A stretch of 63,041 nt of DNA, filler included, from Asterionella formosa (Eukaryota): NCBI GenBank assembly GCA_002256025.1. It is 20 parts of 20 records of this genome, joined end to end, with 100 filler letters (N's around TTAATTAATTAA, not from the genome) between each part and the next. Parts side by side here need not be neighbours in the genome. Positions count along the whole stretch, not along the records: positions 48,445 to 50,183 come from NKIB01001315.1; 19 more parts are not named here. One strand, given 5' to 3'. A program made the translations under genes and the position numbers. Positions within the stretch are counted from its first letter, which is position 1; each line of letters opens with the position of its first letter. The notes beneath the pieces were generated by a model, which was not told the origin of the DNA, ran no database searches, and saw only the letters and a list, made by a program, of their open reading frames with translations. Below are positions 3,355 through 53,858 of this stretch, piece by piece.

Positions 3355-3413
3355 TACCGGTAGGTACATGGTATGGTATGGTATGGTATGGTATGGTACC
3401 AGGTACCAGGTAC
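3355..3413. repeat. (TGGTA)n microsatellite merging into a TACCAGGTA array
   Basis: TACCGGTAGGTACA-(TGGTA)6-CCAGGTACCAGGTAC read directly. Confidence 0.9.
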
Positions 3414-19269: not shown

Positions 19270-19318
19270 GAGGCTTTCCGGCGACAAATTGTCAATTTCA
19301 GAAAAATGACCGCAACTT
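19270..19318 (-). repeat. Fragment of repeat family D end
   Basis: Reverse complement AAGTTGCGGTCATTTT...GCCGGAAAGC matches 49673-49720. Confidence 0.6.
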
Positions 19319-24184: not shown

Positions 24185-24742
24185 TTACTTGACAGGCGAA
24201 TTAAAATGAGGGGATTGACGGTTGATGTATTACTGTAGTATCTATACATGTACAATAGAATCCCAAAAAATTAAAGTGTGCTTGATTCACATATACCAGA
24301 TAATATTCCTTCCTACTAGCCAATTTCTATATAATGTTAGTATTTCCACTTCGACTGCTCTAGAACACCAGGAATATATCTCGGCAATGGAGTCTTGGTG
24401 TATTTGGGTGATTTGGAACCGGCAATGCATACATGGACCAGGACAATTTGGGAATGCTCTACATTTGGAAGATATTGAGTTGGTCCCATGAGGTATAAAT
24501 ATCCAACCAAGTTCTACAATCAATTTTTTTTTGAGGTGGGACTCTCCAGAATAAATATTTGAAAAATATTGATTGATTAACTATCAACTGCTCCATGTGT
24601 ATGCATTTAATGCTCTGACCTACATTCCAGCCCAGTAGCCTAGCATGTTTTACATGATCACAGCCATGCAAATGTTCCTTAAACAACAATAAACTTCACA
24701 GATATGAATATTACCCATAAGAATGACCAAGACAGATTTTCC

Positions 24743-26007: not shown

Positions 26008-26583
26008 GGTAACAGCTGGGTGCCACTGCTGATCTGGAGTCAAAGGAAGTCCTCATGGGCATGGTGAGCGATGCTGATATACCAAACAAAAAGCCAAATA
26101 TCAAGCAACAGACCTTTCGGACAGGGATTAAGCAGGAGGGAACAGTAGTTTGAGTTCCTAGTCAGAAAATGTGAGATAACAAGCAAGCAGCAAATGTTGC
26201 AGATATTTGAGCAAAGCAAAGATTTTGAACGTGTTTGCATATAGTAAATTTTATGATTGAGAACCGAACCCCGAAACCTTTTTAAGTTGTCAAGGAACAA
26301 TCGAATCGAAATGATATCAATTATGGATATAAATAAATGCTGTACCGGTAGTTGGAAATGCATACCGGTAATTGTTTTGCCGCTTGGCTGCTTTCCATTG
26401 AAGTAGAAGACGGTTTGTACAGTGGGAAAGAATATGCATGAGAGCTACATAGATTCCGTCGGGGTCAGAAAATGCGCGCACAGAGCGATCATAGAATTAC
26501 CGTATGTTTGTCGACCCTCGTGTGCTGCCAAGCTAAGATGGTTGGAAGAAAGGTGTTTAAAACTTCTGGGGAGCTCGAAGGAA

Positions 26584-26667
26584 TTGGGATGCCTGATGAC
26601 CAACTGGAATCAGGCGCTGATGAGTCAGAATGATTAACAGATTCATCTCTCATGCCGACGAATCAAA
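26584..26667 (+). ncRNA. Degenerate type III hammerhead-ribozyme-like fold
   Basis: Stem I TGCCTGAT/ATCAGGCG, core CTGATGA (26617-26623), stem II GTCAGAATGA/TCATGCCGAC, then GAA; the NUH triplet and A15.1 are non-canonical. Confidence 0.4.
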
Positions 26668-28260
26668 ATAGGTCTTCAAGGACTGAGTACCAATGATAAA
26701 TGCTATTGGTACTCAGTTCTGGAATCAACTAAGTATGAATTGTACTAGCCTGTTGTTACTTGTTACTCAGAAGAATATTGAAATTTAATTCATGCTGCAC
26801 AATCCATCGAAATTTTGAAGAGTTGTTAATTGTTGATCCTCGGTTGATACGGTTGTTTGTTCAAGCAATTGGTCAGGCTTAGTTCATTTGGTCAGTATCA
26901 ATACAGAGAAGAAAGAATTTTACCACCCCCACCACCCGCCTTTAGCATTTGAAACTAGATACCTGGTCTGAGGCATCAAGTAACAATCAATACTCATTTG
27001 GAAATGAAGTTGGTCAGTTGGCACATACTCGAATATGTTTCGTGAGAAAAGTGATTGGGACTTTTGCCCCCTTTTTCTACTGTTTCCTTTTGCCTTGAGC
27101 GAGAAAAAGATGATACAAGAAACAGATGATATGACTGGTGCTCCTAGCGATATTGGGTCCGTGTCTACAGTTATAGATTATATGTTACGAGGACAGAGGG
27201 AAGTAAATTCAATTACCCCAACGTGAGAAAAAAGGATAGTTGATTGAAATTACTTAAATGAATAAAGAAGAAAGTGAACTCCGGTTGTATTTAGAAAATC
27301 CCAGATGACAACAACCCCCCCCGCCTGCAATGAGTGTATATATATGCATAAGTATTATTGTTAGCTATCATGCAACGACAAAGATGTATGTACGCGAAAA
27401 TAATAGATCGGTACATGATCTAGAATATATATACGAGTACTCATCTCTGCCTCCATAACTGAATACATATCAACATATATTAGCTAACTCTATTAAGGTC
27501 TACCTGCTACCCGTATACCGTAAGAATATTGAGCGAACTGATACGATTTACAATTCACTATGATACCGATATATGATTGTGAAGTGTTCTATAGACAAGC
27601 ATGTGGTAGGTACCATGGGTACCATGGTACCAGGTATGGTAGTTAGTGGCAACATCATGACAATGATGATACGCCTATTGTAAACAGATAAATTACGAAT
27701 TATAAATCAATTATTGTTTTCAGCTACTGTTGTTGTTGTTGTTGTATATGTCTAATTGATGTATAACAGTTATGTGCGAACTACTACTAGGGTTTTGATC
27801 CGGCAAGAAATCATGGAGATGTTGTCGTTGCAGTCGAGCGCCATTTTGTTTCCGCCGATTTTCTACTATTTTAGCTATTTTGCAATGAATATCAAAGCTA
27901 TCAAGTCAACAGTTGTTTCACTGCTTGCTAGCGACACATGTATTCTATCTAAGAAAATATTAAATGTGTTAAGCAGTTGTATAAGATTGAAAATTGAAAA
28001 ATCATTAAATGATAATGAGAAATTTCTCATGTTCGATTCATGGCTGAGCGATTGTATAATTATATATGTTTGTTCAGTATATAGAAAATCATGCATTTTG
28101 TGTACAGGTATGTTCATATGATGCATACCGGTATGTTCATACTTCATACTAGTATGATGCATATCAGTATGTACCACAGCCGTTGGCACTTCTGTACATT
28201 TAGCTATACCGGTACTAGGCTACTACGGAGTTTTGTGAAATACATGTATTGGTAAACAAT

Positions 28261-28457
28261 GAGATTTCTCGAATAAGGAATCATAACAGCACTCAGAGTT
28301 GTGATTAGAAAAAAACATTTAACCCCCCCCCCTTTCGTAGCAAGGTTCGGAAACTGGTTTTTTCAGAAAATCATTCATCAAAATTGAGTTTTTGATAAAA
28401 TTAAAATTGATTGGCCAGATCGAAACCGTTTGAAATTTCTAAATGTCTAACTAATAT
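28261..28457 (-). repeat. Dispersed repeat family D (MITE-like) copy
   Basis: Reverse complement of about 49740-49937 (TCGTAGCAAGGTTCGGAAACTGGTTT; GAGATTTCTCGAATAAGGA). Confidence 0.85.
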
Positions 28458-29988
28458 TTGCGAGAGCCTAGTGGCTATTGCGACTGACTTGACTACTACT
28501 ACCACCGGTAAATAGATAACTAGGAGTTTGTATTGAGGCTTTGGCCTTCTCATTTGGAATTTTTATTGAAGCTTCTATGGATTCTCGAATTGGGGCTACT
28601 CAAACTGAAGCTTCCCGAATTGAAGTTTACCTCTGGGTTTAAAAACTAGTTTTATATTCTCATATTTTCTGTTTTACAATTATTTATAGACTGTATTACC
28701 TTAGGGTTGCGCAATATTACCGGAGGATTCGAATTTGAGTGCCTGTCAGTGCCGCAATTCAGTTTCAGCAAAATGACCAAAACTTGCAGTTTACCAGTAT
28801 ATTTATTACCTACATAATGAAAATGCATACTACTGGTAGCATATACAGAATGGTCTCAAAACAAGGCATCATCACAGTGCTTTGCATGTTGAAATCACTA
28901 TACTGTTGCAGATGCATGTGTTTGATCACTGAATTGGATGCTCGTCATTCCATCAATTATTCAAACGGTCTGGATTATAATGTATTTCTTGTAAAGACTG
29001 ATACAGTACGGGATTTGATTACTGTATTATAGCCATTGTTGGTGTGGTATTTATTTTGACTAACAGTAATTCAGTATGATACTGGAAATCGTTTTTTAGT
29101 ATTCTGTGTCTATTACTGGAATACATCATTGCTTTTTGATGGAGAATAATTCCCAAGGAGGATTTAATATAACTACTCGGTGAGTATTATTAATATGGAG
29201 TACAATTTACGATATAATATTCTGTTGACAATTTTAGTAGATTCAGCTACTTGTGTGTTTTCTAAAAGAGTGAGATTAAATTAAATGTAATTTTGAAATG
29301 AAGTTTCGATTGAAACATGGCAACTACTACATGTTTCTGAAATGAATTGTTCTTTTTTCCTTGGAGGTGAGGTTCTTTATAGTTCCTACAATTGTAGCAA
29401 AGTAAATTACATCCTCGTCCTTGTAACATAGTAGTACTATACTATATCTATCTAGCCTAGATAGATTCTAGGACATAGATGTTGCTTGACTGAAATACTT
29501 CTTTCAGGTAGCTCCAATATCATCGATTTTTCTTCAATTCTTTGGACAAAACTGATTTGTCTCTCCAATCACTCTCAGTTTAGGGTTAGGTGAACTTGTT
29601 TGGTAAACATAGGGAAAAACTTCATATAATTTGCCCTTTCAACATTGTTCTTTATCAAATGTCTGAAGGTTGTTAATCTTGATACATCATATTGTGCATT
29701 GTTCCCTCAAACACAATGACTTGTAGGGAAATGTTGTCTTCACACAAAAGTAGAGACCTAACTGGGAATCAGGAATCAAGAATTCTTCTGTGTTTCAAAT
29801 GGCGGGAGGCATTCATGCTTGGTGTTGATGACTCTATTACCGGTAAATGACTCTGTTTTAAATAACGGTATGATAACCATTATCATCATCATCATCATCA
29901 TCGATGCTAATTACCAGGTACCTGGTACCGTAATACCTTTGCTCACCATTTCAGTGCTCACCATTTCAGTGTATTATAAAGTAGTACG

Positions 29989-30561
29989 ATGATGGCTGCA
30001 ACAAGAACAAGAGCAACAACAACAACTCCTTCCAAGATTTTGTTCTTGTACAAGCAATGCCTTCGATCCGCACAACGGATTCCTGAATTGGATCAACGAG
30101 ACACGTACCAAAGTTACATTCGACAAGGCTTTCGTGATGTCAAGCAGGGACGACAAGCTGTCATGGCCATGAAGGATGCTGAGGAACAACTGGAGAGAAT
30201 GGATTACTATCATTCTATACGAGAACAAAGTATGAGACTAAAAATGACAGAATCACAGAAAAAGGTATTACCTAGTAGTACTTGTACCGAAGTGTCAGCG
30301 ACAGCAGCACCAAGGCCTGATACTGCCAGTCAGACCAGTACTGCGACAATTAGAGATACCTCCATTCTTCAGCAATGGATACTTGAGGCCATTCCCGATC
30401 TGCATGAGGATGATGTGCACCGATATGCGCAGCAGTTATCCGAAGATGGATTTGACTCACCTTTTCTGCTTCAAAAAGAATTGAAACTCAACGACCTTTT
30501 CTTTATGAAAAAGGGACATTTACGAGCACTGGTCAGGGCACATGGGATTTCAGACAAATGA
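29989..30561 (+). CDS. LYR-motif (Complex1_LYR) protein with C-terminal SAM-like domain
   Basis: ILFLYKQCLRSAQRIP...YIRQGFR LYR signature; C-terminal WI...YAQQLSEDGFDS...L...DL..MKKGHLRAL resembles SAM. Confidence 0.75.
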   Translation: MMAATRTRATTTTPSKILFLYKQCLRSAQRIPELDQRDTYQSYIRQGFRDVKQGRQAVMAMKDAEEQLERMDYYHSIREQSMRLKMTESQKKVLPSSTCTEVSATAAPRPDTASQTSTATIRDTSILQQWILEAIPDLHEDDVHRYAQQLSEDGFDSPFLLQKELKLNDLFFMKKGHLRALVRAHGISDK

Positions 30562-30843
30562 TTGCCGTCACATGTAGATGAGGCTAAGAATGCCACATAT
30601 TATATTGCAAACGCGCAGAAACTTTCTTATATGATTGTGCAACCTATTGAAGTCGCACGGAACTTGCCAAAGAAGGCGTTCGTGTTCTAACATTAACGTA
30701 AAATGTACAGATGATTAAGAAAGCACTTGAATTTTCTAAACATAATCACATAAACTGGTAACGTGGGCAAACATTGGAGGGTTTAGTCACCTATACATCG
30801 GAAAATTTCCAGTAATCATTTGTACAATTTGATGTATAGTTTT

Positions 30844-32490
30844 TCAAATGGCAACTCTTGGTGAAAGACAAATTTTGAATTCTGGTTTCGCTTTCATAGT
30901 AACAAAGGTAGTAAAGGTGAATTCAATATTCTGCAAGGTGGGAGCAATATGCAATTCAAAGGCTCGGAGGATGGGTGCCAGAATAAGCTGCACCTCCATT
31001 GTTGCAAATTGCTGTCCTACACAGTTTCTCCCTCCAGCCGAAAATGGCAAGTAACAAAATCGATGTCGCTTCTCCTCATTATCAATTCCCCCCGTCGGTA
31101 ACCACCGCTCCGGCGAAAACACAAGTGGATCAGGCCAATACAATGGATGTCGATGCAATAAATGAGGCGAAATAACAAGTCGTGTATTGGCTGGAATGTA
31201 ATGTCCCATGAAATTCTCGTCTCTTGATGTGCGCCGAATGATAATCCCAACAGGTGGATACAATCGTAGCACTTCTTTTAAAAATGCTGCCAAGTAGGTC
31301 ATCTTGTTCAATGCCTCCAAATCAATGGTTTCTGATCCTGGTGCATGTTGAATAATGTCGTCATACACACGCTGCTGAACTTCGGGGTACTTGACAAGAG
31401 CAAAGAATGCCCAATAACACCATGTTGACGTTGTTTCGTGACCTGCAACCAAAAATGTTTTAGCCTCATCTCGTAGCTCAATGTTGCTAAGTGCCTTATT
31501 GGACCGTTCATCATTTTCTGCATTTGTTCCCTCATCCTTGGCATCAAAGAGAAGCTGCAGTAATGATTTATGACTACTTGATGTAGATGAAGATTCTGAT
31601 AATGCTGCTTTGCTCCTTGCGTTGTGAATGACTTGGTCCACAGCTTCATTGAGACATTTGTTAGATCTACGTGTCTTCGGGTTCAGCCAAAGATCCATCC
31701 GAGGATACCCAAGGACAGCAAACACAGCAGTCAAAACAGTTGGTTTTAGGGATTCCAACAAAGATGTGCTTAAACTGTCCGAGCCAGAGGACAACTTGTC
31801 ATCACTATCACTAATTCCCACTGAATTTTGTTTCAACGTCCATTTCTTTTGCAATACATCCAAGGCATGAAAGTCATGAGAAAAGGCAACATCTCCAATG
31901 ATATCGAGGGTGAGAGCGGAAAGATGTTCAGCAACGTCAATGTCGTGCCCATCCATGGCCGTTTTGCTCCAGAACGAAATCAACGTCTCCACCTTGCTTG
32001 GGATTGACGCATTCAACGACTCCTTCAGAAAGCCAGTGTTGAAGGAGGGTTGGATAATGCGCCGATGCCGACTCCAAGCCGCTCCTTCCAACGTTACGAG
32101 GCCGTCACCAAGAATGTTCCTTAGTAGCGGAATCTTCTTGGGGAAGCGAACTGGAGTTTGACTGGACGACGCGGTCAGGACTAGTTTGACAATGTCAGCA
32201 TTTAATAGGAGCACAGATGGCCTGCCAAATAGATCTGTATACTGCAGCATGTCCACATCCTTCACACTGGACCTGCTGATGGCATCCGCCCACCAGCGCT
32301 TGTGAGGCGCCAGGAAGGGTGCGCGAGAAATATCAAGGAAATAGCCAAACAAAAAGGATGTTTTCGGTGGACCTGGAAGATCGTTCAAGGGGGATGTAAG
32401 CCATCGTACGTAAGAGCGGGCGAAGCGATAGAACAGGACAAGCAACGCTAAAAGTGCGGCGGTGGGGAACGCATTAGCCATCACCATCAT
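30844..32490 (-). CDS. Cytochrome P450, ER-anchored, intronless
   Basis: N-terminal TM and PGP hinge, I-helix AGHETT, EVLR (ExxR), PERW, haem motif PFSAGGRNCVG. Confidence 0.97.
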   Translation of the reverse strand: MMVMANAFPTAALLALLVLFYRFARSYVRWLTSPLNDLPGPPKTSFLFGYFLDISRAPFLAPHKRWWADAISRSSVKDVDMLQYTDLFGRPSVLLLNADIVKLVLTASSSQTPVRFPKKIPLLRNILGDGLVTLEGAAWSRHRRIIQPSFNTGFLKESLNASIPSKVETLISFWSKTAMDGHDIDVAEHLSALTLDIIGDVAFSHDFHALDVLQKKWTLKQNSVGISDSDDKLSSGSDSLSTSLLESLKPTVLTAVFAVLGYPRMDLWLNPKTRRSNKCLNEAVDQVIHNARSKAALSESSSTSSSHKSLLQLLFDAKDEGTNAENDERSNKALSNIELRDEAKTFLVAGHETTSTWCYWAFFALVKYPEVQQRVYDDIIQHAPGSETIDLEALNKMTYLAAFLKEVLRLYPPVGIIIRRTSRDENFMGHYIPANTRLVISPHLLHRHPLYWPDPLVFSPERWLPTGGIDNEEKRHRFCYLPFSAGGRNCVGQQFATMEVQLILAPILRAFELHIAPTLQNIEFTFTTFVTMKAKPEFKICLSPRVAI

Positions 32491-32659
32491 GGCGTCGTGA
32501 AACCCAAGACGCCACTACCAGTATAGGGAAAAATAAATACTATTATTTGACTCGATAAAGAAAATAAAACTCGTGCTGGAAAGCAATTTTTGAGCAACTA
32601 ATTCCCTATCATTAATTACAGATCGTTTTACTCACGGAAGGCAAGACTCGCCCGAGGTG

Positions 32660-32845
32660 CTCTCGTGCCTGCGACAGGAGTAACGGTATACATGTGTTCG
32701 AGCCTGAGTGGCGCGAGTAGGTTGACCTTCTCGCAAAGCGTCTATTGGTACTCAAGGCAAGACAGGCCAGAGGCACTCACTCACGTGCCAGCGAAACGAG
32801 TATATATGTGTTCGAGGCTGAGTGGCGCGAGTAGCTTGACCATTC
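32660..32845. repeat. GC-rich repeat family F, two tandem copies upstream of the P450
   Basis: TGTGTTCGAG(C/G)CTGAGTGGCGCGAGTAG(G/C)TTGACC occurs twice about 115 bp apart; a diverged reverse-complement copy is at 41942-41992. Confidence 0.75.
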
Positions 32846-34664
32846 AAGTGGCGCCCCCGGCTCTGCGAGAATGTCACCCTACGAGTGCCATCGGAGGAAG
32901 GTCCGGTACCAGGTAGTCCCCATTTCATGCGCCCCTTTTCAGTAACAATTCACTCCCAATGATTCATGCCATACCTGCCGGACGAGATAGGCCAGCTTTC
33001 GCTTAACAAAATGTTCGTTAAGTAATTTTGGAAAACGTTAGTCTTATTGACAGATGACGATTTGCAGAAGCAAACTCTGAACGTGACTCGGATTTGCCCC
33101 TGATCAACACCTTAAGAAAACCGTCTTCTTACTTCGGAATACAAATAAGAATCATTTACCGGTAACTTGCTGACTTAGAATAGAATTTGCTGATTACGAA
33201 TAGAATATGCTGACAACGACTACCGGTAGAACTTGAGGGCGAATACGAATAGATTTTCTGAATGACCCTTGTGATGCAGACGAAGTGCCTGGTAGGTAAC
33301 TGCAAGTTGCGTTCATTTTGCTTAAATAGACAATATAATACAGAATAAAGAATGCTAAATATTTAAGTTCAGCACAATAATCGAAATTTGCTGGTACTGG
33401 CACCTAAGAATGTAGACTACCTGGTACCGTATGTCCATGAGCCACGGTAAATTTGGTCCGATACCTGGTACCACCTTGTACGATGATGCATGAGGCGTGA
33501 TAATTATTCAGGGCACAATTTTTATGTACAAACAAAGTTTTACGTATGTTCAAACAAACATACCGGTACCATAGCAATATTAGCATGGCTATTAGTACAT
33601 ACCGGTACTCGATACCGGTACCGGTGAGCGATCTTGCGCATCAATACAGATGTATATAGGGTTAGTGTTATATCATATATGTATCAGAACTCAACAATGA
33701 AAGAACTCGACTAACCCTCATTGTATACTTTGGTGTTGACTTAGAGAACAAGTTACACACAAGGATTAACAAATAAGCTCATATATTCAACAAACACTAC
33801 TACTTCTAGTTAGATACTTCACTTTGAATTCAAAAAGAGTCCAATTAGAATTAATAATGTTGATGTCCTCTCAAGTTCCAGTGGTCCCATTGATGAAGGA
33901 TAACAACATACTAAACATCAAGATTCAAACCTCTTTGTGTATCCTTACAAGCCAGGTCGACATTTGGAGTCTTACAGCAAAGATATGATCAATTGACACT
34001 CAGGGGAAGCTTGTTGATTGATTTCAGTAAATCCTGTGACATGGCTAACACATATATCTTCAGTCCAGCAGATTGCTTGCTTGTTCTCCTATTGCTACAG
34101 AATATGCCTAATTGATATCGCCTTGTCTGAATGGATGAGCGTTGCAATGCACCCAGATACTCAGTCCTTTGACAGTTTCTACAAAATCATGGTGAGGTGG
34201 CTGAAGCATTATTGCACTCATGACATGTTCCTTTAAGTCAGCATCAGCGGATGTGGATATTATGAAAACTCGATAAAACCGTTCAATGTGCTGTTGATGA
34301 ATGTCACTGCCTGTCTCAAGACTTTAAAGAATTTCCTAAAACTCGTGATAACTCATCCAGAAGATCAAGAGGTTTCCGCCAAGGAAGATTTGAGGTTGAT
34401 TGTCGTTTTGCTTGATTGACAATGCGCGGCAACAAGTGTTTGAATGGAACAATGAAAAGAACACAAAATAATTGATTCGCTTGGTTTTGACTTACTTCGA
34501 GAGTCAACAATTATTCAAAGATCAACTCAAGCACATCCTCAAGCATGAATTCTACCATAAGCCGAAATCGACTTTGCATCGCTGAAGGCAATTGTGTTAT
34601 GTCGAGAGAACGCTCGTGTCTGATGTCAATTTTATCGCGTGCCTGGTGTCAATTTTCTAAGACA

Positions 34665-35000
34665 AAATCGTATATAAATAGTTGAAGTTGAAGACGATTC
34701 CATGACGCATCAAGAAAATAAGCGTGACTAGTGTCAATTTTAACAAAAGATCGTCTTCGCATTGCTAAATGCAGTCCTGTGATGTATCAAGAATACAACC
34801 ACCATTTCAAGTGTAAATTTGTACATGATAATTTTATACTCAGTGGTAATGGCAGGGCACATGCATTTTAATGCAGCCGGCCACGCATGGGATATGAAAC
34901 AACGGTCAAACATAAGGTTCATGGAGTTAATATTACTAACACTACTAACCTTGTTGCTGTTCGGACTCCTGTTCCTGTTCCTCTGGCGTAGAAATTCTAC
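34665..35000. repeat. Repeat family C nested inside the gypsy element
   Basis: Colinear with 60500-60785 (GTGACTAGTGTCA; GCATTTTAATGCAGCCGGCCACGCA; TTACTAACACTACTAACCTTGTT). Confidence 0.85.
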
Positions 35001-35287
35001 GTTGAGCAAATTATCATACTAACACAGCCCACTCTATTCATGTTTTTCTTCCGTGCATGTTTTACATAAGCAAATCCATGGGTTAACCCTGTGATGATGT
35101 CTGGTTAGGGTTCAGTGCCGAGGGCCATACCTGCTGACTATTATGAATCTGCCCAGGAAATTTTAGTGGTCATGAACCCTCCTGTTGGTCAGTTAGTGGC
35201 CGATGTGCCTAATAAAAAACCAGCAGAATGCTGAACAGATCGCCTTAACAGAAGTATGTGCAACAATAGCAACTAGCTATGCTATGA

Positions 35288-35295
<8 letters not shown>

Positions 35296-35327
<32 letters not shown>
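35296..35327. repeat. (TA)n microsatellite
   Basis: Read directly. Confidence 0.9.
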
Positions 35328-37988
35328 TTATGAGCAACAGCACATTGAATATGTCTTACGTCAATCATTACCTGAATAACTTTTGTTATCACCGCTATTG
35401 TAACGCGGGATGCATTTCATTCTCATGTCATTAGCAACCCAAGGATTGGTGGCTGCGTTGTACTATATACATGACATAAGATGAATATTAATTGATTGCG
35501 GTGGATCCTGATCTTTAACTTATGAATGGATTGTACTTCAGGACATTTTGTTGTAAAATCGAACATTTAAAATTAAATTATACCATGCATAGCAGGTATG
35601 ATCCCATCTTTTTTTCTTTGCCAGTACTCAGCATGATGCTCCCAAAATTTAATCCGTCAGCTTGTATCTTGCAACAGAAGTACCTGGTCTTAGTACCTTC
35701 TGCGAGTTTGCTCATTTGTCCAGCTGATTATTTTATGACGGATAATTTACAAATACCATGTCCTGTCTGCATGGTGGATATATCAGTGTTTTTCTGCATG
35801 TCATGCATTCCTATAATGATACGCACAGAACATTTGCACAATGGTTTGATATATTTTGATACACCTATTAAGGATTATGTTTACACATGGAACATTCAAG
35901 CTCCTAACTATACAGATACGGAAAGATGCTGTTATCATGGCCGAAGTCCTCCAGCACAATTCTATATGAAATGGTCTGTTGAAGAAACTGACTCATTGGG
36001 ATATCGATAAACTCCAACCGACTTCAAATTTTGGTCTTCAAATTTTAAAACAGGATTGAAATGGAACTAGTCCATTTGTATGGTTACCTATGCATACATC
36101 AACAAACTTTTATATCAATGAAAGGATTGTTAGTTGCAGATACTACACTCATGCGTTATCCTGATCGTAATTTTCCTTTCCATATTTTTTAATCATGTTT
36201 CTGATTTTCAATTAAGAAACTTTCAAAGAATTTCGCTCTATGTCATTGAATGCGATTCTACATGTTCACACTGATCATCATATTTTATCTTTATTACCCT
36301 ACACAGAAACTCAACGTGTTCTCCGGTGGAGGATTTATAATGAATAATATCTTCTCACTTTTCACATTATGAAGGGTACTGATAATGTCAAATATTAAAA
36401 CTTCTATCTCTCGCCTCCTGAGGCTTGTGTCTTTGGTGGGGGATGATATTGGACCGAAATCTTCAGCATCAACATCCATTTCTACTTTCTCAATTGAATT
36501 AGATGATAAACCTTTGTTTACCTGTTTCCTCAATCATCCAATTTTGGCAGACAATATTCAATATCCTCTGGATTATAACTCAATACATGATAGACAATTG
36601 CTGGATATACAATTGATTCTCAATAAACAACTCATCTCATTCTCAATCAACAAACACATCCGTTAAAATTTCCCTCTATCAATTTTCATCATATACATTT
36701 AATGTATTTTGTGAAGAATCCAGGAGATACTTGACGTATTGTTATTCCTACATCACTATTGTATCCTATTATTTATTGGTATCATCAGATGTTAGCTCAT
36801 GTGGGTATGACAAGATGAAATGCCACAGTTTCTACACGTTTTTACTATCCTTCATTAAAAGCAAGAGTGGAACATATTGCAAGCATATATGAAACATGGC
36901 AAAACGTACAAAATTATTTGGTGCTTGGTTTTGGTGAACTTCCACTAAGGAATGCATTGTTATTACAATACTCAGAAGTCACAGTGGATTTCATTGGTCC
37001 ATGGAAGATAACAGTGACTGCACAAGCGATTGAATTTCATGCTCCAACTTGAGTTAACACAGTCACCAATTTACCAGAAATTTCACATATCAATAATAAG
37101 ACATCAGAATATATTGCGATGAAATTTAAAAATGATTGGTTAGACAGATATCTCCGTCCAGAAGTTTGTAGAGATGACAATGAAAGTCAATTCATGACAA
37201 TGGAGGTCAATTTACTGGTATTCCTTTCATACACATGTAAGTATTGAATGGAATTAAAATTGGGACCATTACAGTCAAGATTCCACAAACAAATGCTATC
37301 CGTGAACGTTTACATCAATCTATCAGTAACAGTCTATGTACGAGTTATGTTAAAGGCTCATCCTCCAATCAAGGAATTTCAAGTTCAGAATTATTGTGGA
37401 TACTAATATTTATAGTACATTGTGTATTTTCACCAGGAACATGGGTTTTCCAACATGATTTGATCACAGATATGTAATTGATATTGGGATATCAATGTCG
37501 ATAAGTGATAATTGACAAATGACTACGTCGTGATAATTTCCGTCATCGTTCTTGCGATTACAAAGTTGGTGATAAGGTTTCAATCCTACTATTGGATAAT
37601 CCTAGTACTACCTTGGATAACCAAGGACGAGGTCCTTATTCTATTATTCAAGTATATGCCAATGGTACAGTTACTTTTCAACAAACTATGCATAATACGG
37701 AACGAATTAATATTCATTACATCAAACCTTTTCAAAGGTAAAAGGTTTTCCCTTGATGTGGGAGAGTGAGCGATCTTGCGCATCAATACAGATGTATATA
37801 GGGTTAGTTTTATATCATATATGTATCAGAACTCAATAATGAGAGAACTCGACTAACCCTCATTGTATACTTTGGTGTCGACTTGGAGAACGAGTTACAC
37901 ACAAGGATTAACAAATAAGCTCATATATTCAACAAATACTTCTACTTCTAGTTAGATACTTCACCAGTTCCCAGTTCCCAGGTACCAG

Positions 37989-38880
37989 GAAGGTGCGGTA
38001 ATTGCGCCATCTGCGCGCTTTTTTGGGTACAGCCCGCCTGAAGGGCTTTGCAAGTACGACCGACCGTTGGAGTCGGCTGGCTTCCTATCCATGTTCGTTC
38101 TTTTAAGTAAATTTAAATTATGACCGTACTTTGTGATTTGGCGTTCCCTCTTTAATAAACCCTTCAATTTGCTCACTACACGAAAGTTTTGCTCATCGCT
38201 AATAGCATTCGCTCATTACTCAGAGCATTTGCTCATTGCTCTTAGGAATTGCTTGTCGCTAAATAAATTTGCTCAGTACCTCAAATTTTTGCTCATAGCT
38301 AATAAAATCTGCTCATCGCCATGAACTATTTCATTTTCAAATAGTTACCGGTAAAGGCAGGAGCTGGCCCAGATTTTATCGATGTAGAGTTATGTTCGAA
38401 ATATTTTTTTTACGTTTGTAGCTACCAGTACAAAATAATTTTAGCATCATTATAATTTTGTGCATAAATAACATTCACATGAATAAATTTTATGTATGCA
38501 TTTAAATAATTTTACCATCCGATCTCGTTGTTGTCATGGTTGAATTCATTCATGATGACTTTGAAATCGAGTCCAATGCACAGCGATGGTTGTGAAATCG
38601 CTGAAGTAGCTATATTGTTTCTGCTATAGCACCCTGTTTGAGGAATTACTGCACAGTTTCAACTCCAGGTACCTTACTGTCAAGCTCAAGAGGTTTTGCA
38701 CGTAATTTGGTTGGTCATGTAGGCGTGGATTTGCCATGCTCAACACTAAATAGGTTGTATTTAAACGAAATCGTGTGCTCCCACGCCGCTTGATGCGTTT
38801 ACTGAAAGCGCTGATCATGGCGGTTATGTTGATAAATCAAGCGGCGCGGGAGGTTGTAAAATTGAAATTACCGCACCTTC
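37989..38880. mobile_element. Non-autonomous TIR element (PIF/Harbinger-like MITE)
   Basis: Perfect 15-bp TIR GAAGGTGCGGTAATT / AATTACCGCACCTTC; TSD CAG on both sides within TAC-CAG-GTA; about seven internal TTTGCTCA-type repeats at 38168-38316. Confidence 0.85.
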
Positions 38881-38956
38881 CAGGTATCTGGTTGTGTTCA
38901 GATACCGGTACATTGGTTCATTTATATACCGGATATACCATGCTCAAGGTACCAGG

Positions 38957-39144
38957 TGAGCGATCTTGCGCATCAATACAGATGTATATAGGGTTAGTGT
39001 TATATCATGTATGTATAAGAACTCAATAATGAGAGAACTCGACTAACCCTCATTGTATACTTTGGTGTCGACTTGGAGAACGAGTTACACACAAGGATTA
39101 ACAAATAAGCTCATATATTCAACAAATACTACTACTTCTAGTTA
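38957..39144 (+). mobile_element. LTR family B, third copy, truncated by contig end
   Basis: Near-identical to 37767-37954; preceded by TACCAGG. Confidence 0.92.
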
Positions 39145-39244
39145 NNNNNNNNNNNNNNNNNNNNNNNNNNNNNNNNNNNNNNNNNNNNTTAATTAATTAA
39201 NNNNNNNNNNNNNNNNNNNNNNNNNNNNNNNNNNNNNNNNNNNN

Positions 39245-42924: not shown

Positions 42925-44664
42925 TTCTGGGAGCCAGTCTGGTACCTCATGAGCAATAGAAAGTATCCGGCGAAGAGGTACCTTCGTGGACGCTTTGTGG
43001 GGATTGCCTGGACGACGGGAGACAACATGTGCTACCGCATCTGGACAGATGAAAAAGACCTCATCTCCAGAGAAATCCACCGTAGCGTGGTGCTCCCTCG
43101 GCATCCAGACGAGGAGTTTCCAAGAACCTTGGTCAAATACACAAGCGACTACTTCTTCCCAACTCCCAAATTGCCGAAGAACGGTCCAGAAGTTGTTAGT
43201 GCCAACCTCGAGGGGGGGAGGAAAAGGGTACGGGAACAGAGTAAACAACCTGACGAAGCTGACAAGAACAACGGTGGAACTCGCATAACACCGGGGCCGC
43301 GTGAGGGCAGAAGTAAACGACCGGGCAGTGGAGATCACACCACTTATACCCCAGGTACCGGGGCGCATAAAAACGTGGACATCGCGGAAGGAACCATACC
43401 GGAGAGTACTGATGTGGGAAACCTCGGCCCGGAGGAAGCAGAAGTTCGCAAGCGATGGCTTGAAATGACAGAAGCGGAGGCAAACCGCGTCCTAGAACTA
43501 TATGCACCACCTACCGAGGGGGTAGACTATGCAAATATGAAAACTATTCTTAGTCATAAAACCACTACTAGGGATGGAGTGAAAACCATTACATTCCGAG
43601 TAAAGTACCGGTCGGGAGAAGTGATCCAGTGCGATCTCGATGACCTGAAAATAGATGCGCCATACTCACTCGCAGTCTATCTCAGGCAGAAAAAGATCAT
43701 GTCCCCTACCCTCAGGGAATGGTCTCAGAGAACGCTAGAGACCCTAGATACTTCATTGTATAGGACCAGGCTAATAGAACCAAATACTTCAATCCGGAGG
43801 CGACATGCACATGATGCTAGCGCCACAGTGGTGACCCTGACCCGATGCAACTCAGCCTTCTCCAGTCGGCGGCGGGTGAAAACCAACTCGAAGCCGGGCA
43901 GGAACAAAAGGAGACCGCATCACTCAAGTGGATGTGAAGTCAAATATGGGGTGAAAATCCCCAGGACGGTAGGAGAAGCTATTGACCTGGACAAGCTTAA
44001 TGGTGATGACCTGTGGCACCAGGCAATAAAGAAGGAAATTGGTGCTCTCATGGAGATGCAGACCTTCAACATTCTTGGACCGGACGAATCTAAATCCTTC
44101 AAACGGGATGGATTTCAGTACGCTCGACTGATGATGATATTTGACGTCAAGCAGGATTTACGGAGAAAGGCCCGACTGGTTCTAGGAGGTCACATGATCG
44201 ATGCCTCAGGACACGATACATACGCGACCAACATGAAAGGAATCAGTGCCAGAATCCTCATGCTTATTGCAAGTGCAAACGAACTCAGGGTATTAACAGG
44301 TGATATAGGGAATGCGTATTTGTATGCCAGCACAAATGAAAAGATATTCTGCAGGCTAGGAGAAGAGTTCAGCATAGCAGGGCATGGGGCAACTGGAAGG
44401 ATTGCAGTGCTTGAAAAGGCACTGTATGGCACCAAGAGCGCAGCAAACCGATGGCATGCACACCTAGCAGACACCCTACGATGTATGGGTTTCACAACAA
44501 GCAGGTACGATGCAGACATTTGGTACCAAGCACGTAGTGATGGCTCTGGCTATGATTACATCGGGACACATACTGATGACCTGATGATAGTGGCAAAGAA
44601 CCCGGAAGGGTACTTTGAGGTGCTACAGGAGAAGTATACGATAAAGAAGATTGGCCCACCTACA
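42925..44664 (+). mobile_element. Copia (CoDi-I-like) pol fragment: integrase C-terminus, chromodomain-like module, RT; variant 1
   Basis: GRFVGIAWTTGD; ILSHK...FRVKYRSGE...DAPYSLAVY; KYGVKIPRTVGEA; KARLVLGGH; GDIGNAYL; KALYG; open across the contig. Confidence 0.92.
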
Positions 44665-44764: not shown

Positions 44765-46504
44765 TTCTGGGAGCCAGTCTGGTACCTCATGAGCAATAGA
44801 AAGTATCCGGCGAAGAGGTACCTTCGTGGACGCTTTGTGGGGATTGCCTGGACGACGGGAGACAACATGTGCTACCGCATCTGGACAGATGAAAAAGACC
44901 TCATCTCCAGAGAAATCCACCGTAGCGTGGTGCTCCCTCGGCATCCAGACGAGGAGTTTCCAAGAACCTTGGTCAAATACACAAGCGACTACTTCTTCCC
45001 AACTCCCAAATTGCCGAAGAACGGTCCAGAAGTTGTTAGTGCCAACCTCGAGGGGGGGAGGAAAAGGGTACGGGAACAGAGTAAACAACCTGACGAAGCT
45101 GACAAGAACAACGGTGGAACTCGCATAACACCGGGGCCGCGTGAGGGCAGAAGTAAACGACCGGGCAGTGGAGATCACACCACTTATACCCCAGGTACCG
45201 GGGCGCATAAAAACGTGGACATCGCGGAAGGAACCATACCGGAGAGTACTGACGTGGGAAACCTCGGCCCGGAGGAAGCAGAAGTTCGCAAGCGATGGCT
45301 TGAAATGACAGAAGCGGAGGCAAACCGTGTCCTAGAACTATATGCACCACCTACCAAGGGGGTAGACTATGCAAATATGAAAACTATTCTTAGTCATAAA
45401 ACCACTACTAGGGATGGAGTGAAAACCATTACATTCCGAGTAAAGTACCGGTCGGGAGAAGTGATCCAGTGCGATCTCGATGACCTGAAGATAGATGCGC
45501 CATACTCACTCGCAGTCTATCTCAGGCAGAAAAAGATTATGTCCCCTACCCTCAGGGAATGGTCTCAGAGAACGCTAGAGACCCTAGATACTTCATTGTA
45601 TAGGACCAGGCTAATAGAACCAAATACTTCAATCCGGAGGCGACATGCACATGATGCTAGCGCCACAGTGGTGACCCTGACCCGATGCAACTCAGCCTTC
45701 TCCAGTCGGCGGCGGGTGAAAACCAACTCGAAGCCGGGCAGGAACAAAAGGAGACCGCATCACTCAAGTGGATGTGAAGTCAAATATGGGGTGAAAATCC
45801 CCAGGACGGTAGGAGAAGCTATTGCCCTGGACAAGCTTAATGGTGATGACCTGTGGCACCAGTCAATAAAGAAGGAAATTGGTGCTCTCATGGAGATGCA
45901 GACCTTCAACATTCTTGGACCGGACGAATCTAAATCCTTCAAACAGGATGGATTTCAGTACGCTCGACTGATGATGATATTTGACGTCAAGCAGGATTTA
46001 CGGAGAAAGGCCCGACTGGTTCTAGGAGGTCACATGATCGATGCCTCAGGACACGATACATACGCGACCAACATGAAAGGAATCAGTGCCAGAATCCTCA
46101 TGCTTATTGCAAGTGCAAACGAACTCAGGGTATTAACAGGGGATATAGGGAATGCGTATTTGTATGCCAGCACAAATGAAAAAATATTCTGCAGGCTAGG
46201 AGAAGAGTTCAGCATAGCAGGGCATGGGGCAACTGGAAGGATTGCAGTGCTTGAAAAGGCACTGTATGGCACCAAGAGCGCTGCAAACCGATGGCATGCA
46301 CATCTAGCAGACACCCTACGATGTATGGGTTTTGCAACAAGCAGATATGATGCAGATATTTGGTACCAAGCACGTAATGATGGCTCTGGCTATGATTACA
46401 TCGGGACACATACCGATGACTTGATGATAGTGGCAAAGAACCCGGAAGGGTACTTTGAGGTGCTACAGGAGAAGTATACGATAAAGAAGATTGGCCCACC
46501 TACA
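44765..46504 (+). mobile_element. Copia (CoDi-I-like) pol fragment; variant 2
   Basis: Same length and boundaries as 42925-44664, about 20 substitutions by eye. Confidence 0.92.
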
Positions 46505-46604: not shown

Positions 46605-48344
46605 TTGATGATGATGAAACCCTGGCAATCTCAAATTCACCATTTCCATCTTCTTCAATCAGAAGAGAATATCGAGTACCTCCTGTTTTGGATTTCACAA
46701 TTCCAACGTCAACTGGGACAGCTTCCAATTTGTATTGTAAATCTCCAATATCTTCGCCAAGAAACTGACTACAAGCGGTTCCGATCACCATGTTCTCCAC
46801 CATTCTCGCCCCACTTTGAATATCCATCACATCTTTGCGTTTCTGGGAAGTCCTGGCTGGTAATTTACACAAGAATTTAAGATTCTTTTCCATTAGACCT
46901 CCATTAAAAACCTGTGGACTTCCGAAACGATGAATGTTTCTTACAGTATGCATCTGTTGATGAAACTTCGCAAGCTTCCATCCCTGAGAGGTTGTTGTTC
47001 TCGGGCATTCTTTTACCAGCTTAGTAAAATAGTTGACAACGCTTTGGTGTTCCTGTGGTAAATTTCCCACATCATAACTCTCTTTACTAAACCAGGCATT
47101 GTAGCAGAGCATCCCTTCGAATAGACCTTGAAAGTTTCGAATTCCTTGATTGGTCATACCACTTTCTTCTCGGCAGATTTTGATTCCAGCATCACATGCC
47201 ATGACAACACAGGCAATAAGCATCACTCCGATTCTTTCGTTAGCAGTTATTTTCGTTTTGCAACCATGAAAGCCGAAATTGAAGGAACAACGAGGAAGGT
47301 CTCGGTCACTCTGGTGAAGGAAGAGTTTAGATATGTTGTTGAACAACTGGTCAAACAGTTTTCGATTGGAATTACCCTTCACTGTTTTGGGGCGCCCGAT
47401 CATATAAGAATATAGCACATGAGGTGATCCATTATTCCTTCTTGAATGGAATGGAGTTTTTCAGAAGGAACGTGCCCATTTACACCAAGAGGATCGCCAC
47501 CAAAACACAACTGATACCAAAAGGGATAGATGAATCTTTGGCTCACATTATCCAATAAATCTTTTATGCCCCGGATTAATAGTTCCTCGTCATCAATCTG
47601 ACCTACAGGACTGCATTCATGAGATGGATTGTCCGTTTGATCAAACGGTCAATAACATTCACGACATATTCTGGCAGTCTTTAGATATGTTTTCTTTCGT
47701 CCGCATTGTCCATCTAAACCTTCAGCATCACCGAGAATTAGACCAACCGGAACTTTCACATTAAGTGTAAATTGATTGCCTCCGAAATTGAAAATGTGTT
47801 TGAATCCACCAGCTTGTTGGACATTCTTGACCCCCTCAAGAATCACACCAAGGACAGCGTGATAATCGGATTCCTTTTAATCGGGGGTTAGGGACTGGAT
47901 TTCAGATAGACTTGATGAGGTCAGCTTTGGGATCAATCCGATTGGCCGCCATGCATTGATCTTATTTCTCACATTGGTAGTAAATATACCAAGTGACATT
48001 AGGACAGGCTCCATTGTATACTTTCCTTTTTCAACCGTGTGTGTCTTGTCAATAAAGAACATGAGTGGAACAAGGAAGTCATTTGGCTGAGAACATAAAT
48101 ATTCATGGGCATCTATCCACCAGGTACCAGTGTGAAATTCGGATCTGACACTGGTGGGTTGTGGTGCTTTACACAGATTGACGAAATCAAATGACACATT
48201 TTGTGGTGACATTAGTATGTCATTTGTCAAGAGATTCTTAACCTGAGCCATGAAATCAAAACATACAACATCAATCAGTTTTCCATCATGCAATATGGCC
48301 TGTTTCACCTGGGGAGTTAAATCATTCATGTTAAATCGGTTTTG
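46605..48344 (-). pseudogene. Plavaka/CMC-like DDE transposase pseudogene
   Basis: Three ORF pieces form one protein: FIDKTH...EPV...LG, AWRPIG, GDAEG.D..CG, CREC, EKLHSIQEG, KFHQQMH...FGSP...E..LK; in-frame stops at 47877 and 47649 and a frameshift near 47420. Confidence 0.75.
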
Positions 48345-48444: not shown

Positions 48445-48768
48445 AAGCAACTGTCCGCCACTTCATCACCTCCGCCCAATCCCCGAATAACTTTAGTTCT
48501 GACATCTTCAACTGTGACTTCAATTCCGTAGCGTGAGAGAAGAAAGAAAACGATGTCTTCGTCTGAAAGGTAGAAGAAAGGTATTAGAAAGAAGCAATGC
48601 AACTCTGCAAAGACAACATGAGCATGCGAACAAAAGTTTGGTGTACGTACCGTTAATGGATCCGTTGGTTCGAATTCCACTCATATCTGTCTGACAGAGG
48701 GCAGAAATGTATTCTAGCTCCCGGACATCTGCGTTCGCCCCTATGGGCCTTTGGAATCCAATTGTCAT
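48445..48768 (-). CDS. 5' part of a hypothetical gene; exons 48768-48651 and 48562-contig end
   Basis: An 88-bp intron GTACGT...TTTCAG joins two ORFs in frame (GSIN-D-EDIVFFLLSRYG). Confidence 0.75.
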
Positions 48769-49466
48769 CTTGATTGGTATTATCGATGCAACGAATGATC
48801 AGCTGACAAAACAAAGCACCGGTAGGCAGGTATTAGAAATGTTTTTACAATGAGCAAATTCATTCCTCAAGTCTTACACCCTCGCGCTTCATTTACCTGG
48901 TACCAGAACAGTACCGGTACTCTCAGGTAGTTACCTGGTACCAGGGTACCTGGTAGACCAGCTGTGCATGATGAATTGAAGTTTGGCTGATGGATACAGA
49001 TTAAATAATACGCACACCAGGACATACATATTCTAGTACATGTATTATTTATCTCGGGAGGATATTCTGAACCACAACAAAAAACACGACTTGAAGGATA
49101 CATATGGTTGGTGTGAGAAAGAAGGGCGCGTGCATCATTTTCACCTTCATTGTTGTTCTTGCTTTGAGTTCGGTAGACTACCTGGTACCAGGTACCAGGT
49201 ACCTTGTATTACATCCGATACAGCGGCCCAACCGGTACCACATACTGTAAATAGGCAATCCTCAAGCAAAGAAAACAATAACGGTGTGGAAAATTGTTAC
49301 TCTGGAGTGCGTATAATAAGCCTGTGAATCACGATACCTGGTACCTGGTACCGTAGTGGGTTACATATGGCACCTGGTAGTTTGTACGGAATGTGTCACC
49401 AGTTTTGAGGGCAAACCCTCCTGGTCCTGGCTACAGCATACATACAAACTAGGAAAAGGTACCTGG

Positions 49467-49667
49467 TGAAGTATCTACTGGTAACTAGAAGTAGTAGTAT
49501 TAGTTAATCCTTGTGCGCATCTTGATCTCCTACCGGTAGGTTGACACTAAAGTACCGGGGTATTCAAATAGTTGTTTGTCGAGTTCTCTCCTGATAGAGT
49601 TCTGATATATCTACCGGTATGTAAACCTAACCCTATAGGTATGTCTGGTGTTGAGCGAGATCGCTCA
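49467..49667 (-). mobile_element. Old, diverged solo LTR of family B
   Basis: Begins TGAAGTATCT and ends AGATCGCTCA, the reverse complement of the family B ends; flanks CCTGG/CCTGC. Confidence 0.85.
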
Positions 49668-49937
49668 CCTGCAAGTTGCGGTCATTTTGCCGAAAATGGA
49701 ACGCGGCGCCGGCAAGCACTGATATTCGACTCCCCGCTAATATTACTTAGACATTTAGAAAACTCAAACGGTTTCGCGCTGGCCAATAAATTTCCTTATT
49801 ATCAAAATCTAATTTTAAAGAATAATTTTCTGAAGAAACCAGTTTCCGAACCTTGCTACGATTAGGGGTTTTTGGATTGGGGGGGTTTCCCCCTAATCGC
49901 AATTTTGAGTTTCAAGACTCCTTATTCGAGAAATCTC
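49668..49937 (+). repeat. Dispersed repeat family D copy
   Basis: Matches 28261-28457 and 19270-19318 in reverse complement. Confidence 0.85.
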
Positions 49938-50058
49938 CTAGTTTATATGCATTTCTGTTTTCAAACAGTGGTTGTGGTAAATATCGTTATGCATCATACA
50001 TAGGAGTACTACGTAGTACATCCATCTTGCATCCCTGTATGCATACCTATATCAACTA

Positions 50059-50183
50059 CCGTATACTTCATTGTCCTGGACCCCCCAATGTACACTGCCG
50101 TGACTGAATTTGACTGATTTTACTTAAGGGGGGCCCAGGACAATGAAGAGATTTCCCTTATAATGGACCTAAGTAAATTTCTT
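50059..50183 (+). mobile_element. Probable end of a Tc1/pogo(Tc2)-type element
   Basis: TA|CCGTA start; 21-bp inverted repeat CTTCATTGTCCTGG(A/G)CCCCCC at 50066-50086 and 50128-50148; the other end is off-contig. Confidence 0.5.
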
Positions 50184-50368
50184 NNNNNNNNNNNNNNNNN
50201 NNNNNNNNNNNNNNNNNNNNNNNNNNNTTAATTAATTAANNNNNNNNNNNNNNNNNNNNNNNNNNNNNNNNNNNNNNNNNNNNTCTGCCTCCTCATTGGC
50301 ACTCCGTTCCTCTACACCGGATCTAAATTTATTACAGAGGAGCTTCTCTTCCCTGGTAAATTCATTGC

Positions 50369-52121: not shown

Positions 52122-53858
52122 CATTAATTGATGGTGTACCCAAGGCATGAAATAGATCACGAGCTCGCTTAGCTCTCTGAAATTGACGTTCAGTGTAAAA
52201 TGTTTTGTTTTCTTCAAGTGTATTTAACATTTGAGCATTCTCCGCTCTCGTTCTTGTAGTTGGCTTGAAAACATATAAGTTCATCCCAATTCTTTCAAAT
52301 CGAACTGTTTTGTCAGGCAAATGAACAATGAATGCATCTTCTTTCTCAGAGTCATAGGTAATTCTGTACCTATCTGCCATTTCGGCATAACTGAAGATGT
52401 TTGTGATTGCCTTTTCATTAAACCATACTTCTCCCCATTCTGGAAGATCAGCCTTCATATTAGTTACCATGGATCCACCATTTGTGGCCAGGTGCATGCT
52501 TCCGTTGGTTGACATTCGAATGTTATTAACCATTTTTGGATTGCAAAAGACTGTGACACTTGATTGATTATCCAATAGTATCCAGTCACGCATCTCAGAT
52601 GCTTGGTAAAATTGTAGTTTCATATGAGCTCCCATCCATCCAAATTGATTGGCATTTGCTTGTTGTGAAGCTTGTGATGACGGTGGGTTGTTGGAATTAA
52701 CAGAGGTAACTGTACTTGTGTCGGATGTATTAGCCTGTGCCTGTGCATGGCTTTGGGCCTTGTTAATTGCCCATTCCTCTTTGGGTTTATTCTTGTCTCG
52801 ACACGAAGGAGATTTGTGACCTGCTTTTCCGCAGCAGTAACATTTTCCTTCTAACTGTGCAAACGATAAGTTCACATCTTCGTCTTCGTTGCCTCCATCC
52901 TTTTGTTTCCTCTCTTTATCATTATCTCCTGGTTTCTTGTAGACAGATTTATTTGTTACGTCAAACCGATGGTTGCTGAGAACATTGTTTGATTCGGTGA
53001 TGCTCTTCGGGTATTGATCGTTGCCGAGTGACTGTTGAGTGTTCAGCCCGGTCATAATTGATCCGTATTTGGTCTTGTCGGCATTATCGAGATATAAATA
53101 TGCCATAAATTGACTGAAAGCTTGTTCACGAAATTTATCTCGTTGCTTGATGTCGGTCTCGTTGTATCCATCTATGGCTTCAACGAACTTGGTGAGGATA
53201 ATGGGTCCTCCCATGTGTGACTTGAGCACATCACGTGCCACACGGAATCTCTTGGTGTAGTCTTGTAGACTTTCTCCCTCTTTCTGCTTTGTAAATAAAA
53301 GCGTTTTCATCGCGTCTAAAATGATCGACATTGAATATCGATTTTCTTGAAAATTTAGTGCGTGTTCTTTAATTGCCATAAGCAATGTTATTGGGTTATT
53401 TTTGATCCTATTGTAATCGGATCTTGCTTCAATCTTGTTCTTCATGGCTTTGTTGCATCTTTCCCAGAGCAACGCATATGCCTTGGTATTATTATTTTCG
53501 TAGGCCTGTACCCTTTTACTGTAGGTGTCATAGTCAGCCTTGAACTCAATCTCATATTGTCGATTCTCTGCAGCGCGATCTTCTTCTGTTGTTGCAATGC
53601 TCACTTGCATTCTTGGCTTCCATGCCAATGTGCTCATTGGTTCTAATAACTCGAGCGCGGTTCCTATGTCGTTGCCATAGTCGAACACTTTCTTGATATG
53701 ATTGATGAGGTACTCAGTAGTAGTCTCATAATCAGATGCCTGCTTCGATGATCCGAGGTAGTAGTTATAGTCATTGACTGACTTCTTGATTGATTGAGAA
53801 GCAATATTGCTCCCTCCCTTGGCTTGAAACTTGCCCTTGGCTTGAGCCTTCTTGGTAA
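52122..53858 (-). mobile_element. Ty1/Copia gag-protease fragment, second copy of the 7368-9108 family
   Basis: Nearly identical protein; extends further 5' (TKKAQAKGKFQAKGG...YYLGSSKQASDYETTTEYLINHIKK). Confidence 0.92.

Follow-up and report, generated by a model that had tools for sequence, protein, structure and literature searches.

Candidate Excision Footprints of a TA-Inserting Transposon in an Old Solo LTR and Elsewhere in Non-Coding Diatom DNA

Introduction

Excision footprints are textbook knowledge, usually seen singly in assays or as rare, messy polymorphisms. Those of Tc1 and Tc3 read TA-CA-TG-TA, and the inverted repeat of the mariner element Mos1 starts with CCAGG. Among LTR elements, the gypsy/ZAM group of Drosophila shows sequence-specific integration at short palindromic targets. 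When a Tc1/mariner element is excised, its transposase severs the non-transferred strand several nucleotides in from the end, and after end-joining 2–4 nucleotides from the start or the finish of the element remain between TA dinucleotides; the canonical scars of Sleeping Beauty are TACAGTA and TACTGTA (PMC6943129). A genome-wide survey in rice, over 63% of two genomes, counted 94 excisions, most with deletions or filler and just 8 clean (PMC4423477).

Here we analyze a stretch of 63,041 nucleotides, the whole of which is called the window below. An initial annotation of this DNA had drawn attention to an old LTR with four short insertions at TA dinucleotides and had attributed them to the excision of a TA-targeting element with CC...GG ends.

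Results

Composition of the window and identity of the host

The window consists of 20 contig pieces joined by nineteen N44-TTAATTAATTAA-N44 linkers (e.g. 1743–1842, 39145–39244 and 50184–50283), across which distances are meaningless. Nineteen of the pieces are 1736–1742 bp long and stand in slowly falling order of length; the remaining one is of 28 kb (11050–39144). The old LTR (piece 48445–50183) and the young LTRs with which it is compared (piece 11050–39144) are unlinked, because they lie on separate contigs. The host is an intron-poor eukaryote. Long uninterrupted ORFs encode a P450, a fatty-acid desaturase and an aminotransferase, in addition to a Copia-type reverse transcriptase; the named relatives of the P450, at 42–47% identity, are all diatoms, and the runs containing the contig of the old LTR are labeled as algae or freshwater metagenomes.

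Two pairs of contigs are nearly identical. One (7368–8967 versus 52124–53723, on opposite strands) agrees at 96.4% over 1600 bp with no gaps and represents a long ORF with no Pfam family and a weak hint of a zinc knuckle. The other (42925–44664 versus 44765–46504) agrees at 98.9% over 1740 bp, also with no gaps, and carries the Copia reverse transcriptase. Both pairs are probably repeat copies or haplotypes.

Four insertions private to one old LTR

The old LTR is a solo copy of LTR family B at 49467–49667, its TG...CA ends being read on the minus strand. It is flanked by CCTGG (49462–49466) and CCTGC (49668–49672), a near-identical 5-bp duplication that in LTR orientation reads GCAGG and CCAGG, 4 of 5 bases alike. 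The features of a solo LTR are all present in the family: TG...CA ends, a 5-bp target duplication and, in full copies, a polypurine tract by the 3′ LTR. The LTR begins with TGAGCG and ends with ACTTCA, and GGGAGAG stands just before it in 9 copies.

Four insertions, all at exactly the coordinates that the initial annotation had assigned to them, interrupt this copy, and at each a single TA has become TA-X-TA, with X being CTGG, CCGG, CCGGGG and CCGG. The first, TA-CTGG-TA (49476–49483), is composed of TA at 49476–49477 and CTGGTA at 49478–49483. The second, TA-CCGG-TA (TACCGGTA), occupies 49531–49538 and has CCTAGG as its counterpart in L001, one of the metagenome loci described below. The third, TA-CCGGGG-TA (TACCGGGGTA), at 49553–49562, is a variant form and the sole TACCGGGGTA of the window, while the fourth (49612–49619) is again TA-CCGG-TA (TACCGGTA) and is absent from the other aligned copies. 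Because TACTGGTA is the top one-mismatch variant of TACCGGTA, the first insertion is probably a TACCGGTA scar that has undergone a CpG-to-TpG change.

The alignment on which these statements rest comprises 14 LTR copies, four from the window and ten from metagenome loci recovered in one scan with a two-block LTR pattern; two of the 13 copies other than the old one are incomplete, owing to a run of N or to the end of their contig, and counts at a site refer only to the copies that cover it. The three young copies of the window, all on the plus strand (33625–33821, 37767–37963 and 38957–39144, the last ended by the contig end and linker), are without scars, which bears out the absence from these copies reported at the outset. 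The insertions are likewise missing from all 12 young copies and from L001, and are thus private to the old window copy. At the sites of scars 1, 3 and 4, every other covering copy has a single TA; at 49531, where the sequence is CTAAG or CCAAG in the 12 young copies, L001 alone has an unambiguous single TA.

L001 is a sister copy from the old subfamily. It possesses the diagnostic substitutions of the old copy together with a plain TA at all four sites, and differs from the old copy at 12% of positions (21/175), as compared to 20% (36/177) between old and young copies and 17% (33/194) between L001 and young copies. The initial annotation had recognized that motifs ancestral in a sister LTR subfamily would undo its proposal; the four insertions are not ancestral, because L001 lacks them.

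The old LTR lies in a hot tract, beside the end of an old element. Its 1.7-kb contig holds 11 exact scars and includes, upstream of the LTR, a scar-dense tract (48894–49350) with the chains TACCTGGTACCAGGTACCAGGTA (49179–49201) and TACCTGGTACCTGGTA (49335–49350).

The DNA of the young LTR element is quite different in this respect. Comparison of its loci with the window copy gave 54 indels of at least 4 bp; the 31 of these that measured 4–14 bp were inspected, and none was scar-like. In loci L002–L010, which together contribute 25.7 kb of the young element, a single exact scar is present. This low scarring indicates either that scarring is mostly old or that those repeats are avoided. Comparison of the window with itself for paralogous indels, which offered few pairs, showed no indel of the scar type. 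The window copy of the young LTR element (33625–37963) has no long ORF, and no reverse transcriptase was found in its internal region. In run X1 the summed depth over this element exceeds that over single-copy DNA roughly a thousandfold, and several metagenome contigs (L002–L009) have internal sequence on both sides of one LTR, an arrangement that represents either tandem arrays or collapsed assembly.

A TA-flanked CC(W)GG motif throughout the window

The sequence TACCGGTA occurs 33 times in the window, whereas 100 dinucleotide-preserving shuffles gave a mean of 0.28 and a maximum of 2. TACCWGGTA (TACCTGGTA/TACCAGGTA, both strands) occurs 31 times, against 0.32 and a maximum of 3 in the shuffles. 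When written as TACC(N0–2)GGTA, the motif has 71 sites in 40 clusters distributed window-wide. The minor forms, TACCAGGGTA and TACCGGGTA (2 each) and TACCCGGTA, TACCATGGTA and TACCGGGGTA (1 each), would match the expected output of variable end-joining.

The motif is highly specific both in its core and in its flanks. TA is present on both sides of 33 of the 141 CCGG and 31 of the 125 CCWGG sequences, in contrast to control palindromes, for which the same count was 0/97 (GGCC), 0/65 (GGWCC), 0/63 (CGCG), 1/96 (GCGC), 3/363 (CATG) and 1/141 (CTAG). Among the 16 palindromic cores of the form TA-XY(W)Y′X′-TA, only CC stands out (33 without W and 31 with W) when the TA microsatellite is set aside (23 and 3), the next being TG (7 and 1). 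The bias toward TA duplication that the annotation had proposed as a check is seen in 4/4 insertions of the old LTR and in the CC(W)GG cores of the window as a whole.

The 64 exact scars (TACCGGTA or TACCWGGTA) are spread over 11 of the 20 contig pieces. The 22,020 bases of 16 listed long ORFs are free of them; the full set falls in the remaining 39,349 bases, at a density outside ORFs of approximately 1.6 per kb. They are also clustered: 40% of the gaps between successive scars are 60 bp or shorter, as compared to a mean of 6.8% and a maximum of 19% in 2000 random draws over 4001 TA sites. Nine chains were found in which a TA is common to adjacent units, and six of the nine mix unlike units, a composition that favors separate events over slippage. 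One-mismatch variants of TACCGGTA number 43 versus 33 exact copies, the top ones being its CpG-transition products, TACTGGTA (8) and TACCAGTA (4). L001 comes from an independent metagenome contig, and the 190 bp of host DNA that flank it are full of the TA-CC(W)GG-TA motifs, which are therefore not an artifact of one assembly.

Two features of the sequence around particular scars deserve mention. A (TGGTA)n run of about six units at 3363–3396 leads straight into TACCAGGTACCAGGTA and could have arisen, as a microsatellite, by expansion of a one-sided scar, TA-TGG-TA. One short contig overlaps at its end (5004–5425) positions 11247–11667, at the start of the 28-kb piece, with 98.8% identity, stopping just before the scar at 11671, and scars seem to break the assembly.

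Contigs of four runs (X1, X2, X6 and X9) were aligned to 19145–39144, a region in which repeats dominated the comparison; the indels listed (12 of 98) and the joints listed (15 of 232) lie away from scars. An X2 contig across the scar-rich interval 33244–33648 differs by 3 substitutions and 30 gap letters. The X1 contigs are identical to 19145–39144, and X1 is possibly the source sample, because they match without differences. In some X1 contigs the scar chain at 22059–22074 (region 22058–22076) is joined to LTR ends (37765 and 37967), which reflects either LTR insertion at a like site elsewhere or a heterozygous insertion here.

A candidate parent element

Every TACC...GGTA pair no more than 7 kb apart was scanned for inverted ends. 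The candidate parent is a 900-bp non-coding inverted-repeat element at 37985–38884 (plus strand), flanked by TA at 37983–37984 and 38885–38886, and no further TA-CC...GG-TA parent was found in the 63-kb window. Its ends are CCAGGAAGGTGCGGTAATT (37985–38003) and, on the minus strand, CCTGGAAGGTGCGGTAATT (38866–38884), giving the layout TA-CCAGGAAGGTGCGGTAATT...AATTACCGCACCTTCCAGG-TA, of which the outer bases are TA-CCAGG...CCAGG-TA; ends of the parent type may be written CCWGGAAGGTGCGG... The 19-base ends match each other at 18 positions, the sole mismatch being the central W, and 3 sites of the window match the end pattern, versus 0.01 expected. In this one element, the terminal bases next to the flanking TA agree with the bases of the scars, as is expected if scars retain the terminal 2–4 bases of an element. 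It contains no ORF of at least 100 aa and has no Pfam match.

Variant letters inside the 900-bp element are carried by 11–47 contigs of run X1, and the summed depth there is 18,794–85,862 versus 776–1,131 in single-copy contigs. Depth does not translate into copy number, but these observations are suggestive of a family with multiple copies. With inverted ends, a TA duplication, no coding capacity and several copies, the element has the characteristics of a non-autonomous, TA-targeting MITE. We infer from the shared end bases a link between this element and the scars, and the 900-bp family, or relatives sharing its transposase, presumably made them.

A pair at 25072–25435 was considered as a second element and judged to be due to chance, its ends being weak (13/16) and lying inside ORFs. 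The one match to the element end TACCWGGAAGGTGCGGTAATT in genome_contigs was also attributed to chance, as it belongs to a bacterial MAG of 60% GC without scars or a partner repeat; viral_contigs had no match to TACCWGGAAGGTGCGGTAATT.

The end of a related element family, CCTGCAAGTTGCGGTCATT (49668–49686, plus strand), abuts the old LTR, resembles the end of the 900-bp element at 16/19 positions, and is the third match of its end pattern. The family to which it belongs, a second inverted-repeat family with ends (A/C)CTGCAAGTTGCGGTCATTTTGC, is represented at 49668–50183, 28253–28789 (minus strand), 33300–33321 (plus strand) and 19273–19318 (minus strand). The scars that such a family (ends ACTGCAAG...) might leave, TA-AC(W)GT-TA, occur only 0 and 1 times in the window, without and with W.

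Pfam comparison of 54 of the 72 window ORFs of at least 100 aa, and of 150 of the 295 of 55–99 aa, revealed no transposase of the Tc1/mariner/pogo or another TA-targeting type. The sole transposase-like match is a fragment of Plavaka type (CACTA-like) at 47880–48344 (minus strand; PF18759, E 1.8e-10), which runs into a contig end.

Junctions of LTR family B beside CC(W)GG

All seven host junctions of LTR family B adjoin CC(W)GG, and four are exact CCWGG. In the window these junctions lie at 33620–33624, 37964–37968, 38952–38956, 49462–49466 and 49668–49672, and in the metagenome loci at 177–191 (L001) and 147–155 (L010). The pentamers are CCAGG, ACCGG, CCAGG and GCAGG on the 5′ side and CCTGG, CCAGT and CCAGG on the 3′ side, with TA directly beyond the pentamer at five of the seven junctions. 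There are 125 CCWGG in ~61 kb, or one at about 0.2% of positions. LTR family B seems to insert at the scar core and to duplicate 5 bp, CCWGG, in doing so.

Discussion

We propose, with a probability of roughly 75%, that the four micro-insertions are Tc1/mariner-type excision footprints of a TA-inserting element with ends CC(A)...(W)GG. The TA-targeting element with CC...GG ends postulated by the initial annotation gains support from the private insertions, the TA-flanked cores and the ends of the 900-bp element, while the transposase that such an element would need was not found among the window ORFs compared. In the mechanism that we envision, the element would insert at TA, duplicating it, and on excision the transposase would cut the non-transferred strands a few bases in from the ends, leaving TA and 2–3 element bases on either flank; end-joining would then yield TA-CC-GG-TA or TA-CC-W-GG-TA. 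Ends of the form CCA.../...AGG would leave a 3′ overhang of CCA on one strand and of CCT on its counterpart. Pairing of these overhangs by their last base would give TACCAGGTA (which is TACCTGGTA on the opposite strand), loss of the paired base would give TACCGGTA, and plain fill-in would give TACCATGGTA, a form observed once. A stagger of 2–3 nt yields both TACCGGTA and TACCWGGTA only via specific trimming or a 1-nt overlap. Alternatively, a stagger of 4–5 bases could produce the two main forms directly, although this would be unusual. The staggered cut, the pairing of overhangs and the route of repair are, in this scheme, proposed by analogy with Tc1/mariner elements. The chains of scars imply repeated insertion into or beside earlier scars, by either local hopping or a preference for scar-like targets, and chains and clustering therefore require an added assumption concerning target choice.

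Clustering is also what gives weight to an explanation that dispenses with a transposon, in which slippage, tandem duplication or templated end-joining copies existing TACC(W)GGTA units locally. Three of the nine chains are indeed homogeneous tandem units, the (TGGTA)n run is of a similar nature, and the flanks of scars often resemble decayed scars (C at −4, G at −2 and −1). Local copying nevertheless fails to explain isolated insertions at four separate TAs of one LTR and the scatter of scars over 11 of 20 unlinked pieces, and it accounts neither for the six chains of unlike units nor for a TA-flanked element that shares the end bases. We consider it unlikely as the origin of the motif, although it may contribute to the growth of chains. 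Somewhat less probable still is the idea that the LTR retrotransposon system produced or selected the palindromes, or that they serve as a functional motif, e.g. a protein-binding site, under selection. The CC(W)GG sequences at all seven LTR/host junctions, four of them exact CCWGG, are in its favor, as are the perfection of the palindrome and its confinement to DNA outside of long ORFs. Integration, on the other hand, copies a CCWGG that is already there and brings in no unit flanked by TA, and LTR elements are not known to depart by excision. Selection for a binding site is unsupported, because scars decay like neutral DNA, with more one-mismatch than exact copies and CpG transitions first, and the presence of four scars within a single dead solo LTR also argues against function.

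That the motifs are ancestral in the LTR subfamily, arise from alignment or assembly, or are due to chance appears very improbable. The assembly does consist of short contigs often broken at these motifs, for instance at the piece end at 5426. Against this reading stand the lack of all four insertions in L001, the shuffles, which never exceeded 3, the recurrence of the motifs in an independent metagenome contig, and the agreement of X1 contigs with 19145–39144, though X1 may be the source sample. Footprints of piggyBac, PIF-Harbinger or hAT elements (TTAA, TWA and 8-bp duplications, respectively, hAT scars being built from the flank) were rejected, as the duplicated unit here is TA and the core is constant whatever the flank.

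Excision of a Tc1/mariner-type element remains the preferred reading, and its scars show a plausible coarse trend with age, young copies having none and the old copy four. The suggestion in the initial annotation that scar density might serve as a mutational clock is nonetheless poorly supported, because scars are clustered and the sister LTR is free of them: L001 has 0 versus 4 at similar divergence. Scar density looks like a regional as much as a temporal property, and would make a poor clock without correction.

If the footprint reading holds, the scars make it possible to count directly the cut-and-paste events of the past, which ordinarily escape view, and they allow target choice and local hopping to be read from the genome sequence, in addition to offering a view of end-joining in diatoms. 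The footprints are uniform, approximately 100 times over-represented, and constitute a visible share of the non-coding DNA; in practical terms, they can break short-read assemblies. A more far-reaching and quite tentative proposal, which we regard as possible rather than probable, is that this diatom lineage carries a dense ledger of tens of thousands of scars or more, made by a mariner-like element that favors its own scars, and a high-copy LTR family specific for the scar core, the figure for the scars being an extrapolation from one 63-kb window. If true, the scars of one transposon would be landing pads for another, and such targeting by an LTR family would be a new kind of mobile-element interaction.

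In comparison with known systems, TACCGGTA is an exact analogue of the scars of Tc1 and Tc3, which retain two bases per end, and the 900-bp element starts with CCAGG, as does Mos1, while CCAGGAAGGTGCGGTAATT was matched to no named family beyond those five bases. With respect to Sleeping Beauty, a duplicated TA surrounds terminal bases in both cases and the product is a palindrome with a central W (TACCWGGTA here), and minor end-joining variants are to be expected as among Tc1/mariner footprints; in contrast, the core here comprises 4–5 bases (CCGG, CCWGG) instead of 3, and the scars are not assay products but fixed genomic marks, at the density noted above for non-ORF DNA and commonly in chains (PMC6943129). 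Like the Stowaway-type MITEs of rice, the elements are short, non-coding and bounded by inverted repeats with a TA duplication, and small insertions add to divergence, whereas the marks here are very uniform and far denser, and the host is a diatom (PMC4423477). A literature search, which most subscription journals lay beyond, found no account of the TA-CC(W)GG-TA motif or of footprints in diatoms; excision footprints as such are known, and their scale, uniformity and chains and the LTR targeting are, apparently, new to us. Finally, LTR family B resembles the gypsy/ZAM group in having a near-constant 5-bp flank, CCWGG, at 7/7 junctions, but differs from it in that it seems to favor, as its target, scars left by a different transposon.
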